Shown: in pieces, positions 1 to 9,040 of the stretch
Layout: each line of letters starts with the position of its first letter
Numbering within the stretch: the first letter of the stretch is position 1
NCBI GenBank assembly: GCA_965198235.1
Contig: OZ240248.1
Location: forward strand, 384,001 to 448,000
Direction: 5' to 3'
Source: Candidatus Poribacteria bacterium
GTDB lineage: Bacteria > Poribacteria > WGA-4E > WGA-3G
Length of the DNA: 64,000 nt
Notes under the pieces: model-generated
Told to the model about the DNA's origin: nothing
Database searches by the model: none
The model's input: only the letters and a program-made list of their open reading frames with translations
Translations under genes and position numbers: made by a program

Positions 1-20
1 TGCAAAAGCAGGCGCCTGTT

Positions 21-431
21 ATGGATAACGATAACGTTGATGGTATCGCGAAGAAGGTCCTTTGGTCCAATAAACAGATTGCGCTGACGCAGCTAAAAAC
101 TGCCTTAAAGGCATTAGAAGATTCGGAAAGCCCAGTAGTTCCAGAGAGTTATCGTGGTGTCTTGAATCGGATACATGGCGATTTCAAAAGACTTGATGGC
201 GGTATGACGCTTTATCACGAATTGTTGACAGCGTGTACCAGTGAAACCGTAGCACTTGAAACTATCCTCGCATTGAAACAGGAAGTTGAGGAAATTGACG
301 CGCTACTGTCGCACCACGAGACCGAATTACAAAAGTTAGAGACGGACACCCAAACACAATATGAGTTGTCGAAAATGGCACTGTCAATGTTTCAAGAGCG
401 TTTTGAAGAGTTCAAGGCAGGTTGCGAATAA
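21..431 (+). CDS. hypothetical helical/coiled-coil protein
   Basis: 136-aa ORF with ATG, Glu/Leu-rich helical character, 18 bp upstream of the epimerase. Confidence 0.65.
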   Translation: MDNDNVDGIAKKVLWSNKQIALTQLKTALKALEDSESPVVPESYRGVLNRIHGDFKRLDGGMTLYHELLTACTSETVALETILALKQEVEEIDALLSHHETELQKLETDTQTQYELSKMALSMFQERFEEFKAGCE

Positions 432-3983: not shown

Positions 3984-4284
3984 GTTGTTTTCACAGCAAG
4001 TTTTGGCTTGCATTTTTGAATATGGGCTTGCAAGCTTCACCCTACAATGCCAAAATTCAGTATCTCCTTTTATATTTTTGTGTCGTGACTCCTGTCTCAT
4101 CTGTCTACTGATATTTTATCACATTTCAGGGTAAAAGTCAAATTTTGTCTGCGTTTTACGGAGTGCCAACGGGAGCATAAAAGCCTTATGGTACATCTAT
4201 TTTGAACCTCTTAAAGTCGAAAATTATTAGTTGTAATCGGTTTGCATTTTGATAATTCATTCAATTGTGATATTATTGGAAATC

Positions 4285-5553
4285 ATGAAAGCATTTGCTA
4301 TTTTTCTATTTTGCGGTGCGCTGTTGCTCTCAGGTTGTGGGATATTTGCCACCAAGCCGATTCAAACCGAACCGCCGACAACTCCTGTAGACCCACTCGA
4401 AAGACTACACACCAATATTGATGCCGTTTTGGAGGAAGTGTTGTTCACAACTGCAAGCATCGGCATCAAGGTTGTTGCCGTTGAAACAGGGGAAGTGATT
4501 TACGAAAAAAATAGCCACAAGTTACACCACCCTGCCTCTACAACGAAACTCTTCACAGCAGCGACTGCTTTGGCGAAACTGGGGTCGGACTACCAATTTG
4601 AAACAACACTTTACGCTGATGCCGTTGTGAAGGGTGAAGTCGTAGGAAACATCTATCTAAAAGGCAGGGCTGACCCGGTGCTCCAACCTCAAGACATCGT
4701 GAAATTAAGCGATGCATTGCTTCAAATCGGTGTGAAGTCGATACAGGGTGACATCGTCGTTGACGAAACATATCTCGATGCCATTTGGGAAGGTCCGGGG
4801 TGGATGTGGGACGATAGACCGCTGTGGATCAGTGCTTTGAGTATCCGAGAAGTCGAACCCGATGCAAGCAAAATGAGCAGGGCACTTGCCTGTGGACATC
4901 TCTTGAAAACTGTGCTTATGGAAAAAGGCGTTAACGTAATGGGTGATGTAGTGCCAGGAACAGTCTCATCAGATGCACACAGCGTAGCGAAACATCTATC
5001 GCCGCCACTCGCCGACATTCTCAAACTGATGAACAAACCGAGTGACAATTGGATCGCTGAATTGATTTTCAAGACAATAGGTGCTGAAGTGATCGGTGAA
5101 CCGGGGACGTGGAAAAAAGGGAGAGAAGTTGTCACTGAGTTTTTGGCAGAAATCATGGAGGAACCGCCGATGCATCGGTTCGTTGACGGTTCTGGGCTCT
5201 CTCGGTACAATCTCCTCAACGCGGAATTGCTCACGAAGTTGCTCGTTTATATGTATCACAATTTTGAATTGATGCCGGAGTATCTGGCATCACTTCCGAT
5301 TGCTGGTGTCGATGGCACCTTGAAAAGTCGGATGCAAGGCGTGTCCGCCGAAAAGGTATTGCGTGCGAAAACGGGGACGTTAAGCGGTGTTTCTGCGCTT
5401 GCTGGCTACACCGTGACAGCAGACGATGAGGTGTTTGCGTTCGGCATTCTCATCAGCCATTATGTCGGTCCAGCAAGATCAGCGCGAAATATCCAAGATA
5501 AGATTGGGAATTATCTGACGGGGTTTAGTCGTCATTCTTCTATGAAGCGTTAG
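4285..5553 (+). CDS. dacB: D-alanyl-D-alanine carboxypeptidase/endopeptidase (PBP4, peptidase S13), lipoprotein
   Basis: PASTTK (SxxK), SDN, KTGT motifs, DGSGLSRYN; lipobox LSGC. Confidence 0.93.
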   Translation: MKAFAIFLFCGALLLSGCGIFATKPIQTEPPTTPVDPLERLHTNIDAVLEEVLFTTASIGIKVVAVETGEVIYEKNSHKLHHPASTTKLFTAATALAKLGSDYQFETTLYADAVVKGEVVGNIYLKGRADPVLQPQDIVKLSDALLQIGVKSIQGDIVVDETYLDAIWEGPGWMWDDRPLWISALSIREVEPDASKMSRALACGHLLKTVLMEKGVNVMGDVVPGTVSSDAHSVAKHLSPPLADILKLMNKPSDNWIAELIFKTIGAEVIGEPGTWKKGREVVTEFLAEIMEEPPMHRFVDGSGLSRYNLLNAELLTKLLVYMYHNFELMPEYLASLPIAGVDGTLKSRMQGVSAEKVLRAKTGTLSGVSALAGYTVTADDEVFAFGILISHYVGPARSARNIQDKIGNYLTGFSRHSSMKR

Positions 5554-5615
5554 GAATTAACTTCTCTGAGGCAAGTAAGAGCAACTGGAAGTGCTGCTCT
5601 ATTGATGTAATTTTC

Positions 5616-5644
5616 TTGACATATAGGTTTAAATACGCTATAAT
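5616..5644 (+). promoter_or_regulatory. sigma70 promoter, perfect consensus
   Basis: TTGACA-17 bp-TATAAT, overlapped by the direct repeat TAGG(T/C)TTAAATACG at 5624 and 5645. Confidence 0.7.
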
Positions 5645-5898
5645 TAGGCTTAAATACGTTGTAGTCGTTGCAATTTTCAGATTGCTAGGTAGATTTATTG
5701 AAAGCCTGCCAGTTTTTGTCAACTTTTTTCTATATACCCATACTTGGGCTGGGCATGGTATACTGAGGGTGGTTTTGGAATGCCGAGCAAATAAGGAAGT
5801 AGATGTTAACAAAATGTCCTCGCCTATTTTATCATAGCAAAAAACTTATGTTCATGTAAGGTTAACATATTGCATTACGACAGAGGAAACCAGAGATT

Positions 5899-6645
5899 AT
5901 GTTAAGAGCATACCTCGGGGAATTTACCCCTTCATCTGAAATCGAAGATGCTGATGGATTGGACATGCTTGGACTTGATACATTGCCCCAGGAGCAACTT
6001 GCGCCACATGCGCCATCGGCAGGAGATATCGATGAATTTAGTCAGGCACTTGGAGTCCAAGAGCAAGCACCTGTCAAATTTAGCTCGTCACCGATACAAG
6101 AGAGTTCTGATACTACATCAGCCATAGCAGGGCAGAGGAACTATGCGACTCAAGAAGTCAGTAGATTTCAATTGCTTGTTGCTGCTGTGGGCGCGCTTGT
6201 CAACGTAACTGAAGATCGACTCTTAACTACGCTGACAGAAAATGATCATCAAGGGCTTGTCACAGCATTAGACAAGTTAATCGATGTTGTTGGTGAAGAT
6301 GAAAATCATCTTTTTGCTCCATTGATGCATTTCATCGGTAAACTCATCGAGAAGTATGAAGAAACATCTAATGTGACACATCAATATGAATCCTTGGACA
6401 GAGAAGAAGTTGAGAATGAATTGCCTTTACCTGCTCAAGACCTTGAAGCCGCATATAGTGATGCCGAACCCGAGTACACGCTTGATATGCTCATCTCCGT
6501 AAATCCTGACTACGCAGGCCTTAACGAGGAAGGAACTGTCAGTTTACGTGTACCTGCGCGCGGTCTTGAGGCAGCTTATGGCAATGATGAACCCGAATAT
6601 ACCCTCGACATGCTTACCTCGGCAAATCCTGAGTATGATGTATAG
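5899..6645 (+). CDS. putative antitoxin: HigA-like helical segment plus two tandem 'LEAAY..EPEYTLDML.S.NP.Y' motifs
   Basis: Acidic protein; LDKLIDVVGEDENH..LMHFIGKLIEKYE resembles the HigA N-terminal helices; stop overlaps the start of the PemK-like gene. Confidence 0.7.
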   Translation: MLRAYLGEFTPSSEIEDADGLDMLGLDTLPQEQLAPHAPSAGDIDEFSQALGVQEQAPVKFSSSPIQESSDTTSAIAGQRNYATQEVSRFQLLVAAVGALVNVTEDRLLTTLTENDHQGLVTALDKLIDVVGEDENHLFAPLMHFIGKLIEKYEETSNVTHQYESLDREEVENELPLPAQDLEAAYSDAEPEYTLDMLISVNPDYAGLNEEGTVSLRVPARGLEAAYGNDEPEYTLDMLTSANPEYDV

Positions 6646-7339
6646 ACCCCCCAAACCTATCGCAGAGCGCGACGTAATTCTCGTTTATTTACTCGGAAAT
6701 TCCCAGTCCTTTCTCAATAGAGTTCAGGTATACCTTAGGGCGAGAGAAAAATTAGTTGGCCTGCCTCCTGAAGATCTGCAACGCCATCAAAAACGGATAG
6801 ACGATACGCTTGAGGCGAATTCGGATGATATACAAGCACTCTTGGAGTTGGCAGTGCTTCTTGAGATGCAGGATGATCTTCCTGAAGCAACAAACGCACT
6901 TGAGGATGTACTTGAGATACTCTCAGAACGTCAGGAGGACAGTTCTGATGTTTACATACCGCTAGGATCTCTGTATGAACGCCAAGAACGATACGACGAG
7001 GCACGCCATGCTTATGAGGAAGGAGAAAAGTCAGGATTAAAACTTAGACCTGCGATTTGCCTGCGAAAATTACCGCCGACTTATTATAAGGAATTCCTCG
7101 TTTGCGGCATAAGTTCACAAATAACGCGGAGCGAAGCGAATTTTGATGAAGTTGTTGGAAACACAGTTGATAATAGTGTAAAACTTAATGCTAAACAATC
7201 TGTGATTCGAGTCGGCTTCTTAGGGCGAGTCCGAACGGAGGAAATAGTCGGAAGTATAGGTGAGATATCAACTGTTCGCCACAGGCGTTTATTGAAAAAA
7301 TTAAGTGAGTATTTGGTTAATTCAAAACATCGCGTGTAG
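6635..7339 (+). CDS. PemK/MazF-family toxin with internal TPR insertion
   Basis: ERDVILVYL (beta1)...KLRPAICL, LVCGISS, SVIRVGFLG, IVGSIGEIS..RHRRLLKKLSEYL; ATG at 6635/6638 overlaps the upstream stop. Confidence 0.78.
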   Translation: MMYRPPKPIAERDVILVYLLGNSQSFLNRVQVYLRAREKLVGLPPEDLQRHQKRIDDTLEANSDDIQALLELAVLLEMQDDLPEATNALEDVLEILSERQEDSSDVYIPLGSLYERQERYDEARHAYEEGEKSGLKLRPAICLRKLPPTYYKEFLVCGISSQITRSEANFDEVVGNTVDNSVKLNAKQSVIRVGFLGRVRTEEIVGSIGEISTVRHRRLLKKLSEYLVNSKHRV

Positions 7340-7630
7340 TGTTTCAAACAGTCGTTTTACCGTTCCAAATTTCAATTGGATTGTAGTAGAATTTCCTCTT
7401 CTACTTTACTCACAACTACCATAGGAGAGTTGGGCTTTGTGATGCATTGCATGAGATAAAATGAAGTGCAAATTGCTGTCTGGTTTGAATCTCCGAGTAG
7501 AAATTGATAGTCGTAAATACCGCCATGCCCCATTCGCTCACACACAATTGTTCCTACTTGAAATCGGTGTCATCAAGCGGACTTGATCCCCGAAAACGGC
7601 ATGATGTGAGACACAACATCAAAGGTAACT

Positions 7631-9040
7631 GTGAACGCAAAAACGCTAATTGAAATCATAGAAAATATCAGTAATCTGCAGAAAGTTGGATCAGTAGCCG
7701 AAACTGTGCAAAAGGAACTGCAGAACACTCAATTGTCTCTGATAGACAGAGCGATAATTGATGCCTATCTGTTGCAACGGGATGGAAAAATTGCGGATGC
7801 CATGGAAAAGTGGCAATCCATCGTAAATATTGCAGAAGGAATAGATAATGAACTCGCTTCCTATGCTTGGTTTTCCATCGGCGGTCTCTTGTCGGATAAC
7901 AATCAAGAAGATGCCTGTCTCGCTTACGATAACGCGATTAGCCTTAAGCCGGATAATGCCGTCTACTACAACAATCGAGGAGCCACAAAATCACTTTTAG
8001 AACAATATGAGTCCGCTATTTCTGATTATAATGAGGCGATACGTCTGAATCCCGAGTATGTGGACGCTTATTACAATAGAGGATGGGCAAGAAGCGAACT
8101 CCATCAATACGAATCCGCAGTTAACGACTATAATGAGGTGATACGCCTGAATCCTGAGTATACTGATGCCTACTACAACCGTGCGAGAGCGAAAAATAGG
8201 CTCAAGCACCATGAGGCTGCAATCGCCGATTATGACGAAGTCCTGCGTCTAAAACCGGATTATGCAGAAGCTTACAGTAATCGAGGGATAGCAAAAGGGA
8301 CGTTGGGGCACCATGAGGCTGCGATTGCTGATTTTGACGAAAGTATAAAACTCAATCCGGATGGTGCCCATGCCTATTTTATGCAAGGGCATGCAAAGGA
8401 TGTCTTGGAACGTTATGAGGAAGCAATTGTTGACTTTGATGAAGGTATAAAACGCAAACCAGGTGATGTTTACGCCTACTTTAGGCGTGGCTCAGCAAAG
8501 ATTAGATTAGAATACTATAAGACTGCAATTATTGATTTTGATGAGGTCATTCGGCTTAAACCAGATTTTGCGCAAGCTTATTTCATGCGTGGACGTGCGA
8601 AACTTAAATTAGAACGTTATGAGGGCGCGATTGCTGATTTTGATAAAAGCATTGAACTCAAACCGGATTTTCCTGAAACCTACTTCTTACGTGGCTATGC
8701 CAAACATGAACTAAAATGCTATGAAGCTGCGATTGCTGATTTTGATAAAAGCATTGAACTCAAACCAGATGACGCTGAAGCCTATAACAATCGCGGTTTT
8801 TCAAAAATTAAGTTAGATCGGACTGAGTCAGCTCTTATTGACTGTGACGAAGCGATTCGTCTAAACCCATCCTTGGCTGAAGCTTATCACACCCGAGGCG
8901 AAGCGAATGCCCTCTTGGAAAGAATTCAAGAAGCAAAAACGGATTTCCAGAAAGCCTTGGAGTTAGCAGAACAAATCGACAACCAAGATCTCAAAACTGA
9001 GATTGAGGATTCGCTTCAAGAACTTAACAACGCCGAGTAG
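7631..9040 (+). CDS. tetratricopeptide repeat protein (~11 TPRs)
   Basis: Repeated AYYNRG...AIADFDEAIRLKPD units of 34 aa. Confidence 0.92.
   Translation: MNAKTLIEIIENISNLQKVGSVAETVQKELQNTQLSLIDRAIIDAYLLQRDGKIADAMEKWQSIVNIAEGIDNELASYAWFSIGGLLSDNNQEDACLAYDNAISLKPDNAVYYNNRGATKSLLEQYESAISDYNEAIRLNPEYVDAYYNRGWARSELHQYESAVNDYNEVIRLNPEYTDAYYNRARAKNRLKHHEAAIADYDEVLRLKPDYAEAYSNRGIAKGTLGHHEAAIADFDESIKLNPDGAHAYFMQGHAKDVLERYEEAIVDFDEGIKRKPGDVYAYFRRGSAKIRLEYYKTAIIDFDEVIRLKPDFAQAYFMRGRAKLKLERYEGAIADFDKSIELKPDFPETYFLRGYAKHELKCYEAAIADFDKSIELKPDDAEAYNNRGFSKIKLDRTESALIDCDEAIRLNPSLAEAYHTRGEANALLERIQEAKTDFQKALELAEQIDNQDLKTEIEDSLQELNNAE

Follow-up and report, generated by a model that had tools for sequence, protein, structure and literature searches.

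A MazEF-type pair of Poribacteria with a TPR domain inserted in the predicted toxin and two tandem, putatively toxin-binding motifs in the predicted antitoxin

The MazE-MazF and PemI-PemK (Kis-Kid) pairs, including MazEF-mt3 (8zws) and MazEF-mt1 (7du5) of M. tuberculosis, are encoded by overlapping genes with the antitoxin first, and their toxins are SH3-like barrels. In canonical E. coli MazE one tail neutralises one MazF dimer, and the beta1-beta2 loop of MazF closes over RNA. In CcdA-CcdB, one antitoxin chain engages the toxin dimer through one peptide with two overlapping sites, and in E. coli HigA the N-terminal domain is the part that contacts HigB. We analysed a 64,000-nucleotide stretch of a Candidatus Poribacteria genome (hereafter the window), from a sponge symbiont, which carries a pair with the MazE-MazF gene order and, by prediction, the same barrel. 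In contrast to MazE-MazF, the antitoxin has no AbrB/SpoVT or RHH domain and bears its toxin-binding peptide twice per chain, and the toxin carries a domain of about 113 residues in its beta1-beta2 loop and has no PF02452 match; in contrast to CcdA-CcdB, the antitoxin has two separate repeated peptides and the presumed target is RNA, not gyrase. The pair is a variant of the MazEF-type module that is new in architecture, and it is probably a type II toxin-antitoxin pair which Poribacteria have remodelled on both sides, so that one antitoxin chain fills both sites of the toxin dimer. The toxin would be a divergent PemK/MazF-fold protein, presumably an endoribonuclease, with its beta1-beta2 loop replaced by a three-repeat TPR domain, and the antitoxin would combine a disordered N-terminal part, an N-terminal module of E. 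coli-type HigA and two short acidic peptides, with no DNA-binding domain. The features of the locus are as follows.

4249 to 5553, forward strand: upstream neighbour, S13 D-Ala-D-Ala carboxypeptidase (PF02113, E 3e-88), outside the module
5616 to 5644, forward strand: sigma-70-like promoter, TTGACA, 17 nt, TATAAT (12 of 12 consensus matches)
5645 to 5898, forward strand: conserved leader of about 250 nt from promoter to start codon (alignment of orthologous upstream regions)
5899 to 6645, forward strand: antitoxin gene with ATG start, 248 aa (138 homologues at E <= 1e-3; no Pfam or NCBIfam family)
5899 to 6156, forward strand: antitoxin residues 1-86, variable and predicted disordered (pLDDT <50), with one conserved patch, QAPVKFSSSP (alignment A1)
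6163 to 6390, forward strand: antitoxin residues 89-164, helical module resembling the HigA N-terminus, no HTH; core residues 114-155 at 6238-6363 (model, identity, profile link)
6442 to 6513, forward strand: antitoxin motif 1, residues 182-205, LEAAYSDAEPEYTLDMLISVNPDY (sequence; complex-model contacts)
6565 to 6636, forward strand: antitoxin motif 2, residues 223-246, LEAAYGNDEPEYTLDMLTSANPEY (sequence; complex-model contacts)
6635 to 7339, forward strand: toxin gene, 234 aa, predicted MazF/PemK fold with inserted TPR domain (model, fold search, profile)
6695 to 7033, forward strand: toxin residues 21-133, six helices, about three TPR repeats (alignment A2, Pfam, structure matches)
7631 to 9040, forward strand: downstream neighbour, 469-aa TPR protein, synteny anchor

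The TTGAC and TATAA blocks of the promoter are conserved in all eight aligned orthologous upstream regions, and a contig from an RNA library begins at 5647, although a contig start is no proof of a transcript start. Within the leader lie a further promoter-like block and palindromes containing GTTAAC at 5803-5810, 5861-5868 and 5898-5905; an Rfam search of 5500-7700 gave no match at E <= 1. Contigs run across the antitoxin-toxin junction in four of four sponge metatranscriptome libraries. The toxin starts at ATG 6635 and another ATG follows at 6638; the antitoxin stops at TAG 6643-6645, so the two reading frames overlap by 11 nt; the initial annotation had placed the antitoxin stop over the toxin ATG, of which the overlap of the frames stands and the literal overlap of the two codons does not. 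The S13 gene is kept upstream of the pair in loci L001-L011 and L022 and serves as a synteny anchor, the 469-aa TPR gene is kept downstream in L001-L013 and L022, and the pair holds a fixed chromosomal position between them in at least 12 Poribacteria loci. To keep one place from species to species is not typical of mobile addiction modules, and it may point to domestication for another role.

Pfam and NCBIfam searches with the antitoxin returned noise only (DUF4455, E 0.19; RNA_pol_inhib, E 0.27), with no HTH family at E <= 1, in agreement with the initial annotation, and no AbrB/SpoVT-like or RHH DNA-binding/dimerisation domain; residues 1-86 are predicted disordered. As the chain has no recognisable DNA-binding domain, the usual autoregulation could not run through the antitoxin alone. 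Modelled by itself, the antitoxin is predicted to be disordered save for residues 89-164 (mean pLDDT 54.6), with no folded domain past residue 164, and the disorder of the motif region in the lone chain fits what is expected of a region that folds on binding. A fold search with this model was uninformative (best Z 7.3, generic helical hairpins), the family profile found a single chance match among solved structures (E 0.34), and in profile searches of those structures the motif had no sequence similarity to any solved antitoxin. PADLOC gave 0 matches for the antitoxin, the toxin, the TPR neighbour and one plain pair.

The C-terminal part of the antitoxin contains two 24-residue motifs spaced 123 nt (41 codons) apart, with a linker of about 17 residues between them. 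They share 18 of 24 residues (6 differ) and differ at 19 of 72 nucleotides, distributed 2, 3 and 14 over codon positions one, two and three, with synonymous differences in 11 codons; the positions, the spacing and the largely synonymous divergence noted at first reading are thus all borne out. With 14 of 19 differences at third codon positions, both copies are under purifying selection. Tandem Repeats Finder reported no array in 6300-6700, so the repeat is visible at protein level only. A scan in six frames across the complete 5.17 Mb genome found the pattern [ED]PEY[TS][LIVM] four times, and the full motif only in the two copies of this antitoxin. Across Poribacteria antitoxins the motif occurs in 1 to 3 copies. 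Positional orthology of the copies was considered and rejected: identity between same-position copies exceeded that between cross-position copies in only 73 of 210 genome pairs (means 0.719 and 0.715). The idea of an old duplication kept by selection therefore survives in its second half; a single old duplication is too simple an account of copies that fail to group by position across genomes and that vary in number.

The motif reaches well beyond this locus. It forms the C-terminal end of proteins of about 80 aa in many phyla, and 47 of 72 motif-bearing reading frames have a PemK/MazF-like frame directly downstream (25 of 34 outside Poribacteria, 22 of 38 inside), as the initial annotation had said of small proteins encoded before PemK genes. 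Four of six plain downstream proteins pass the PF02452 cut-off of 23.1 bits (36.0, 24.9, 33.8 and 38.6 bits). The single-motif relatives, from Acidobacteriota, Chloroflexia, Bacteroidota and other phyla, share the C-terminal motif with the window antitoxin and are followed directly by a toxin of the same PemK-like subfamily, the two frames in most cases overlapping by about 14 nt. Their pattern reads TLRAHFDG..LEPNT..VTVLP and then W.RLS..LARAYGDDEPEYSLD.IKE.NPEYEGR, and they differ from the window antitoxin in having one motif rather than two and a beta-rich N-terminal segment rather than HigA-like helices; their toxins are plain (106-121 aa), whereas that of the window bears the TPR domain. 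Both single-motif and two-motif antitoxins (the latter at L012-L019 and L025) pair with plain toxins, so two motifs are not required for pairing as such.

The toxin model (pLDDT 88.8) is predicted to adopt the SH3-like barrel of the MazF/CcdB fold. It matches MazF-mt3 (8zws_A) at Z 14.1 (rmsd 2.4, 103 of 105 residues, over model residues 7 to 229), 4mzm_A at Z 12.8 and Kid (1m1f_A) at Z 10.9, with CcdB (1vub_A), of the same fold superfamily, at Z 10.0, and Foldseek placed MazF structures (5hk0_A, E 2.6e-5) at the head of 46 matches at E <= 1e-3. Outside its insert the protein is also homologous to bona fide PemK/MazF members: a profile built from 22 plain toxins gives it 119 bits in total, with residues 133-230 aligned to profile positions 16-112 (E 6.3e-37) and residues 10-20 to the first strand, and it is 34-57% identical to plain members in alignment A2. 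The insert sits in the beta1-beta2 loop, between strand beta1 (residues 13-20) and the K-x-R-P strand (residues 135-145), with six modelled helices at residues 23-132. Residues 21-133 are a TPR repeat, with Pfam matches above cut-off and a TPR fold: the only Pfam matches of the toxin are TPR (TPR_12, 37.2 bits against a cut-off of 30.1; TPR_2, 28.5 against 27), and these carry the weight of the call, since the Z of 11-12 at which TPR structures match residues 34 to 135 is easily reached by helical repeats. PF02452 itself did not match the window toxin at E <= 1, and even the best TPR-bearing orthologue (L007) reaches 14.3 bits against the cut-off of 23.1, over profile positions 20-108 only, because the 113-residue insert splits the domain. 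The protein first described as PemK-like is so by fold and homology; it is not a plain PemK, owing to the TPR insertion, and it goes unrecognised by Pfam. An origin of the insert in the neighbouring 469-aa TPR gene was unsupported (best local E 0.14).

Eleven columns are invariant in 31 aligned toxins, and the TPR-bearing forms preserve every one, K136, R138, D171, S189 and R192 among them. R138-P139 and S160/S161 are conserved (R138 in 31 of 31, alignment A2), and, going by the R-P motif, they may be the counterparts of the catalytic Arg and Ser/Thr of MazF. A phmmer search of solved structures with a plain toxin gave 0 matches, and a profile of 21 plain toxins returned no MazF, its matches being chance ones to biotin ligases (about E 0.008), so that a residue-level map of the catalytic site could not be drawn. 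The protein is presumably toxic and would cleave RNA. It is conceivable, though fairly unlikely, that the pair has instead been domesticated, the MazF-fold protein serving as a TPR-bearing scaffold or RNA-binding regulator that causes no growth arrest and the motif protein as its constitutive partner, in a housekeeping or symbiosis role. The fixed place between the S13 peptidase and TPR genes would fit such a change of role, as would a large domain in the very loop that in MazF closes over RNA, an antitoxin that has no DNA-binding domain, the 16 of 38 Poribacteria motif frames with no adjacent toxin, and the fusion of the HigA-N-like module to TPR arrays at other Poribacteria sites. Against it, the TPR-bearing toxins retain every family-invariant residue, the overlap of the frames and the antitoxin-first order are kept, both motif copies are under purifying selection, and the complex model described below places the motifs on the invariant cluster.

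Residues 89-164 of the antitoxin form helices at 89-101, 105-111, 114-131 and 140-164 (pLDDT 60-84), and the segment LDKLIDVVGEDENH..LIEKYE, at residues 124-154, is the most conserved part of the antitoxin family. This segment had been likened at first reading to the N-terminal helices of HigA, and the likeness is upheld by a chain of profiles. Profile A3, of the HigA-like domain and including the window segment, reaches 1170 clusters, HTH_3-bearing proteins among them, and matches P0384, which carries the module plus an HTH, at E 2.3e-16; P0384 in turn aligns over its full length with E. coli HigA 5ifg_B (E 5.5e-11, residues 13-133 against 15-137). The homology of this helical domain to that of HigA is thus supported by a transitive link, as A3 searched directly against solved structures found no HigA and nothing beyond chance matches (E 0.23 or worse). 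Compared directly by BLASTP, the antitoxin showed no significant similarity to L081, the canonical HigA of this genome, which bears an HTH (E 1.8). Closer kin exist in the same genome: residues 114-155 match a 75-aa protein of L082, which has no HTH and adjoins a HigB_toxin gene, at 25 of 42 residues (60%, E 8e-14), and with the profile link this speaks for the proposed fusion of two antitoxin types. The pattern common to the window antitoxin, E. coli K-12 HigA (YgjM; 5ifg_B, 5ycl_A) and the HTH-less HigB-adjacent proteins is D/E-Y-Q-x-L-x3-L-D-x-L-I-D-V-V-G-E-D-E-x-H-P-L..L-I-E-x-Y-E. In contrast to E. coli K-12 HigA, the window antitoxin has neither an HTH_3 (Xre-type) domain nor a HigB neighbour, and its module lies mid-chain, between the disordered N-terminal part and the PemK-type motifs.

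Were the module working toxin-binding hardware, the antitoxin might have dual specificity and also act in trans to neutralise a HigB toxin encoded elsewhere in the genome. The 60% identity to a protein beside a HigB_toxin gene points this way, as does the part that the HigA N-terminal domain plays in contacting HigB. We nevertheless hold this very unlikely, as the three PF09907 (HigB) genes of the genome lie away from the antitoxin, whose neighbour is the MazF-fold gene, and each has its own adjacent partner, so that no orphan HigB needs the 248-aa antitoxin; at L029, L031 and L047, moreover, plain PemK-like toxins are partnered by this module with a single motif, and in the complex model helices 121-154 are already in contact with the MazF-fold toxin. 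In passages of the review PMC10135005, no mention was found of which HigA domain binds HigB.

A model of two toxins with one antitoxin scored 0.70 (runs 0.68, 0.70 and 0.76) against 0.01 for the best of three controls; among solved complexes 116 of 157 attain a mark of 0.70, and among mismatched pairs 2 of 215, counts that apply only roughly to a job of three chains run on our own alignments, and the score may partly reflect model memory because the toxin fold matches solved MazE-MazF complexes. The runs agreed in at least 94% of contacts, with partner pLDDT of at least 72. Residues 175-206 of the antitoxin, with motif 1, lie on toxin copy 2 (for example Y193 with residue 139), and residues 216-247, with motif 2, lie on equivalent residues of copy 1 (for example Y234 with 139); the toxin residues contacted by both motifs are 139 and 203-209. 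The complex model thus predicts, as in MazE-MazF, that the disordered acidic C-terminal region of the antitoxin folds onto the MazF-fold dimer, and it agrees with the earlier proposal that one chain may occupy both sites. Both findings on which that proposal stood or fell, predicted binding and the tie of the motif to PemK genes, were checked and obtained. The toxin would accordingly dimerise with one antitoxin chain draped over the dimer in a 1:2 ratio, and each motif would fold into the equivalent groove of one protomer, over the family-invariant K136/R138/P139 and GISSQ (residues 158-162), so that both presumed active sites are blocked. Two motifs in one chain would thus do the job that a dimeric single-motif antitoxin does elsewhere.

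The two motifs could also bind separate toxin dimers, the antitoxin cross-linking these into chains or higher oligomers, which we think unlikely. Canonical MazE uses one tail per MazF dimer, the linker between the motifs is short, and a copy number of 1 to 3 would suit a beads-on-a-string binder; yet all three runs put both motifs on equivalent residues of one dimer, with the contact agreement given above, in a model that was offered two toxin copies only, so that higher-order assemblies could not appear. Returning to the single-chain arrangement, the modelled antitoxin touches the TPR domain at its base only (residues 22-35, 99-102 and 131-133) and leaves the concave face free. The TPR domain might then be a ligand-sensing lid on MazF, such that a peptide bound there, whether from a phage, the sponge host or the cell, would free or switch on the nuclease and the two-motif antitoxin would be a single-chain clamp holding both sites shut; we regard this elaboration as distinctly unlikely. 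If it were true, the locus would be a sensor-coupled MazF module in which antitoxin dimerisation is replaced by internal duplication of the binding peptide. Since TPR proteins are so characteristic of sponge symbionts, a link between the toxin module and peptide recognition is worth testing.

Full-text searches, in the titles and abstract openings returned, gave no description of a MazF-fold toxin whose presumed active site adjoins an inserted TPR domain, and the architecture was not found among the matches listed for the literature on Poribacteria toxin-antitoxin systems, MazF-TPR insertion and tandem toxin-binding antitoxins. Since standard profile annotation sees nothing but a TPR protein in this toxin, others of its kind are being overlooked. 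The antitoxins fare similarly: the peptide, putatively PemK-neutralising, defines a widespread family of at least 1020 clusters at 90% identity that has no Pfam or NCBIfam model or name, all clusters being called 'hypothetical protein' and none having a Pfam domain. At one syntenic site in Poribacteria, modular evolution of an antitoxin can be seen under way, with the peptide in 1, 2 or 3 copies, the N-terminal domain swapped for a HigA-derived module and the DNA-binding domain gone, and a single chain predicted to fill both dimer sites offers a test of whether valency, rather than antitoxin dimerisation, sets the stoichiometry of neutralisation. Among 12 antitoxin relatives no Pfam match rose above cut-off, and the beta-rich segment of the single-motif antitoxins gave a weak lead towards an AF2212-like domain (best Pfam E 0.051, in one of the 12 proteins; Atlas score 0.85).

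The antitoxin (248 residues, ORF 5899-6645, + strand) and the toxin encoded downstream of it (ORF 6635-7339) are best described as a MazEF-type module, whose function, toxicity and stoichiometry we infer, and which departs from MazEF in three ways: the antitoxin lacks a DNA-binding domain and is apparently built from a HigA-derived helical module, its predicted toxin-binding peptide is duplicated and comes from an unannotated antitoxin family, and the predicted MazF-fold toxin carries a TPR domain in the beta1-beta2 loop. The initial annotation of the antitoxin was largely right in its overall reading and each element of what it had observed held, including the overlap of the two genes: the toxin frame opens at ATG 6635 (another ATG follows at 6638) and the antitoxin frame closes at TAG 6643-6645, so that 11 nt are shared. 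Pfam and NCBIfam return nothing on the window antitoxin, and its 138 homologues (E <= 1e-3) likewise lack a Pfam domain of their own, PF02113 in P0115 being that of the upstream peptidase gene. Across 21 aligned homologues the N-terminal part is variable, the centre (LDKLIDVVGEDENH..FIGNLIEKYEE) is strongly conserved and the motif RGLEAAYGDDEPEYTLDML..VNPDY is present one, two or three times per protein (once in P0103, three times in P0052 and P0070, twice in most). Modelled alone, residues 1-86 are disordered (pLDDT below 50), residues 89-164 form helices (pLDDT 60-84) and confidence is low over the motif region, where short helices fall at 195-201 and 236-242. Within the variable, predicted-disordered N-terminal part lies a conserved patch, Q..QAPVKFSSSP (window 6058-6096, antitoxin residues 54-66), with Q54 nearly invariant across the 21 sequences, which could be a candidate degron or partner-binding site.

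On the toxin, Pfam matches only TPR families (TPR_12, 37.2 bits, cut-off 30.1) and PemK is not matched at E <= 1. The PemK/MazF-like proteins without a TPR insert that lie downstream of related antitoxins (plain toxins) have 106-121 aa, and four of the six tested pass PF02452 PemK_toxin (36.0, 24.9, 33.8 and 38.6 bits, cut-off 23.1), those of loci L012 (19.5 bits) and L013 (14.8 bits) falling below it. Aligned with them, the window toxin shares the first strand, ERDVILVYL, and the remainder, LKLRPAICLRKLP ... VIRVGFLGRV ... RHRRLLKKLSEYL, with ~113 residues inserted between the two, and it scores 119 bits against a profile of 22 plain toxins, residues 133-230 matching profile positions 16-112 (E 6.3e-37). 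Its AlphaFold model (mean pLDDT 88.8) has a strand at 13-20, six helices over 23-132, then a barrel and C-terminal helix at 135-232; the barrel aligns with MazF-mt3 (8zws_A, Z 14.1, rmsd 2.4, 103 residues over model 7..229), with further matches to S. aureus MazF, MazF-mt1, Kid and CcdB, a Foldseek search returned 5hk0_A (E 2.6e-5, TM-score 0.68 normalised by target), and residues 34-135 match TPR structures (Z 11-12). The loop replaced is what we take to be the MazF beta1-beta2 loop, over the RNA site. All 11 columns invariant in 31 aligned toxins are retained by the TPR-bearing forms, including K136, R138, D171, S189 and R192. The catalytic arginine of MazF sits in an R-P motif; sequence searches of solved structures with plain toxins found no solved MazF, so the MazF catalytic residues are not mappable residue by residue onto this toxin. 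The TPR-bearing form has 69 homologues (E <= 1e-3), most of 222-251 aa, and JGI gives six TPR-bearing clusters the name 'mRNA interferase MazF', with TPR families as their only precomputed Pfam domains. Going by the model and the plain-toxin profile, the downstream gene encodes a MazF-fold protein that escapes Pfam recognition and whose toxicity we infer.

The two 24-residue motif stretches of the antitoxin (motif 1, residues 182-205, nt 6442-6513; motif 2, residues 223-246, nt 6565-6636) start 123 nt (41 codons) apart. Of their 24 residues 18 are identical and six differ, and their DNA differs at 19 of 72 positions (2 at first, 3 at second and 14 at third codon positions), with eleven synonymously differing codons; the spacing and largely synonymous divergence first described are thus confirmed, 14 of the 19 differences being at codon position 3. 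Tandem Repeats Finder detected no DNA-level array across the motifs, and a search of all six reading frames over the complete 5.17 Mb genome gave four matches to the motif core, among which only the two antitoxin copies have the full motif. An old duplication kept by selection had been proposed, and the selection part stands: in the window lineage, the codon pattern suggests that the copies are diverging under purifying selection. A single ancient duplication with independent descent does not fit the family, as among the 210 pairs formed by 21 genomes just 73 showed greater similarity between same-position copies than between cross-position copies (mean identity 0.719 vs 0.715) and lineage-specific changes are common to both copies of one protein (e.g. 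TPAQLNLIKSQR in L002-L004), which argues for concerted evolution or repeated re-duplication in the family. Within-protein nucleotide identity of the copies is 72% in L008, 74% in the window and up to 100% (L003, L004).

The idea that one antitoxin chain occupies both sites of a MazF dimer was supported by prediction, though not demonstrated. Two toxin copies and antitoxin residues 100-248, each with its family alignment, gave a complex score of 0.70 (runs 0.68, 0.70 and 0.76) against 0.01 for the best of three controls, a mark that solved complexes reach in 116 of 157 cases and mismatched pairs in 2 of 215, counts that are rough here because our own alignments and three-chain job differ from the tool's calibration. 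Some of the score may come from solved MazF complexes already known to the predictor, since the toxin fold resembles them. Contact agreement between runs was at least 94% and partner pLDDT at least 72. Residues 175-206 (motif 1) contact toxin copy 2 and residues 216-247 (motif 2) contact copy 1, and the toxin positions touched are the same in both copies, with toxin residue 139 touching Y193 and Y234, and toxin residues 203-209 touching antitoxin 197-205 and 238-243; antitoxin helices 121-154 also contact the toxin. The toxin-side interface comprises residues 4-9, 15-24, 135-140, 156-162 and 195-209, with the TPR domain contacted at its base only (27-35, 99-102, 131-133). The model, in which higher-order assemblies could not appear because only two toxin copies were offered, supports one antitoxin chain filling both symmetric sites of the toxin dimer.

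Poribacteria are sponge symbionts. In other bacteria the motif closes the C-terminus of proteins of 74-105 aa that show the pattern TLRAHFDGxQILLDEP.ELEPNT.L.VTVLP at the N-terminus, then W.RLS..LARAYGDDEPEYSLD.IKE.NPEYEGR, in Acidobacteriota, Chloroflexia, Bacteroidota, Armatimonadota, cyanobacteria and other groups. A search with one such protein found at least 1020 clusters (E <= 1e-3); among the matches listed none had a Pfam domain and all that bore a name were 'hypothetical protein', and the ESM Atlas likewise gave only 'hypothetical protein' clusters and one AF2212-like lead (score 0.85). From a search of species genomes that used the family alignment of the antitoxin, we kept 80 loci, 72 with a motif-bearing ORF. 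The suggested association of the motif with the ends of small proteins before PemK genes proved correct, with a PemK-like ORF directly downstream on the same strand in 47 of the 72 (22/38 in Poribacteria, 25/34 in other phyla); for two of the remaining 25 the contig ends within 350 nt, and L011, L065 and L074 also hold a PemK-like ORF, their antitoxins having been missed by the motif pattern used. This motif antitoxin family is common yet unannotated.

The central antitoxin segment had been likened to the N-terminal helices of HigA without the HTH, and the likeness was borne out through intermediates. The N-terminal domain is the part of HigA that contacts HigB. The genome holds three PF09907 HigB_toxin genes, the first followed by a canonical HigA (L081) whose weak HTH_3 match (16.5 bits) does not reach the cut-off of 23, the second by a 75-aa protein without HTH and the third by a protein of >493 aa with two module copies fused to TPR repeats. 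The latter two loci, in the window's own genome (G000), are:
L082, G000:C1:1958719-1961928, - strand: HigB_toxin gene at 1483-1908 (102 bits), 75-aa HigA-N-like protein at 1252-1479
L083, G000:C1:1892057-1895314, + strand: HigB_toxin gene at 1405-1776, module-TPR fusion from 1780 to the locus end

Window residues 114-155 are identical to the L082 75-aa protein at 25 of 42 positions (E 8e-14). At E <= 1e-3 a profile of the module matched 1170 representative clusters, 415 of which reach E <= 1e-10; they form a family, mostly of 57-150 aa, for which Pfam has no model. Among 20 module-bearing proteins picked from the 150 matches listed of these clusters, Pfam placed HTH_3 after the module in three (P0368, 25.5; P0371, 29.3; P0384, 22.0 bits; cut-off 23), TPR repeats in six and nothing relevant in 11. 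P0384 aligns with E. coli HigA (5ifg_B, 5ycl_A) over residues 13-133 against 15-137 (E 5.5e-11), including the N-terminal domain. Since the module profile leads to P0384 and P0384 to E. coli HigA, the segment is by transitive links homologous to the N-terminal domain of E. coli-type HigA, and it has no HTH; BLASTP of the antitoxin against the genome's own canonical HigA was not significant and the module profile did not reach HigA among solved structures. HigB is also paired with an HTH-less protein in L040 (Crocosphaera) and L032 (a further Poribacteria genome), and such HigA-N-like proteins may form a class of HigB antitoxins without DNA binding that has gone unrecognised. Fusion of the antitoxin module to TPR arrays seems recurrent in the lineage (L083, and six TPR-bearing proteins among the 20 drawn from the wider database).

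The syntenic locus has the order leuA-like gene (- strand), S13 peptidase, antitoxin, toxin, 469-aa TPR protein and conserved ORF (- strand), and occurs in Poribacteria in these forms:
L011: one motif, plain toxin
L012 and L013: two motifs, plain toxin
the window, L001-L007 and L022: two motifs, TPR-bearing toxin
L008:4028-4363 and L010:4046-4333: truncated antitoxin, toxin absent
L020:353-1105: in-frame fusion of a single-motif antitoxin with the end of the TPR gene, toxin lost

Elsewhere in Poribacteria genomes, short two-motif antitoxins lie beside plain toxins (L014-L019, L025), and the HigA-like module with one motif lies beside plain toxins in L029, L031 and L047. From these combinations, motif duplication, HigA-module graft and TPR insertion were therefore separable events. 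In L020, where the antitoxin continues into the C-terminal end of the TPR protein, the toxin looks to have been removed by a deletion. The L008 and L010 antitoxins are N-terminally truncated to 95-111 aa with two motifs and the conserved promoter retained, and no PemK-like ORF follows within the 1.9-2.1 kb up to the TPR gene.

Upstream of the antitoxin lie:
5616-5644: sigma-70-like promoter, 12 of 12 matches
5645-5898: conserved leader, with a second promoter-like block, TTTACAC..GGTATACT, in orthologues
5803-5810, 5861-5868 and 5898-5905: three GTTAAC-centred half-palindromes, the last spanning the start codon

The promoter is kept in all eight orthologous upstream regions, followed by the conserved leader of ~250 nt, which has no Rfam match and, because the antitoxin lacks a DNA-binding domain, could be an operator for another regulator. 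In four metatranscriptome libraries of one study, 86-95% of sampled words from window 5600-7400 were present, contigs spanned the antitoxin-toxin junction in all four, and 20 of 23 contigs aligned had at least 99% identity. Word depth in one run (X4) was 60 on a contig over 5647-6935 vs 5.0 on a contig over the end of the upstream gene, which hints at transcription from the 5616-5644 promoter, though such contigs cannot show transcript starts and DNA may occur in RNA libraries. At the promoter -10 region (window 5624-5663) there is a 21-nt tandem duplication (TAGGTTTAAATACGCTATA / TAGGCTTAAATACGTTGTA), present in the window only among the eight aligned orthologous regions.
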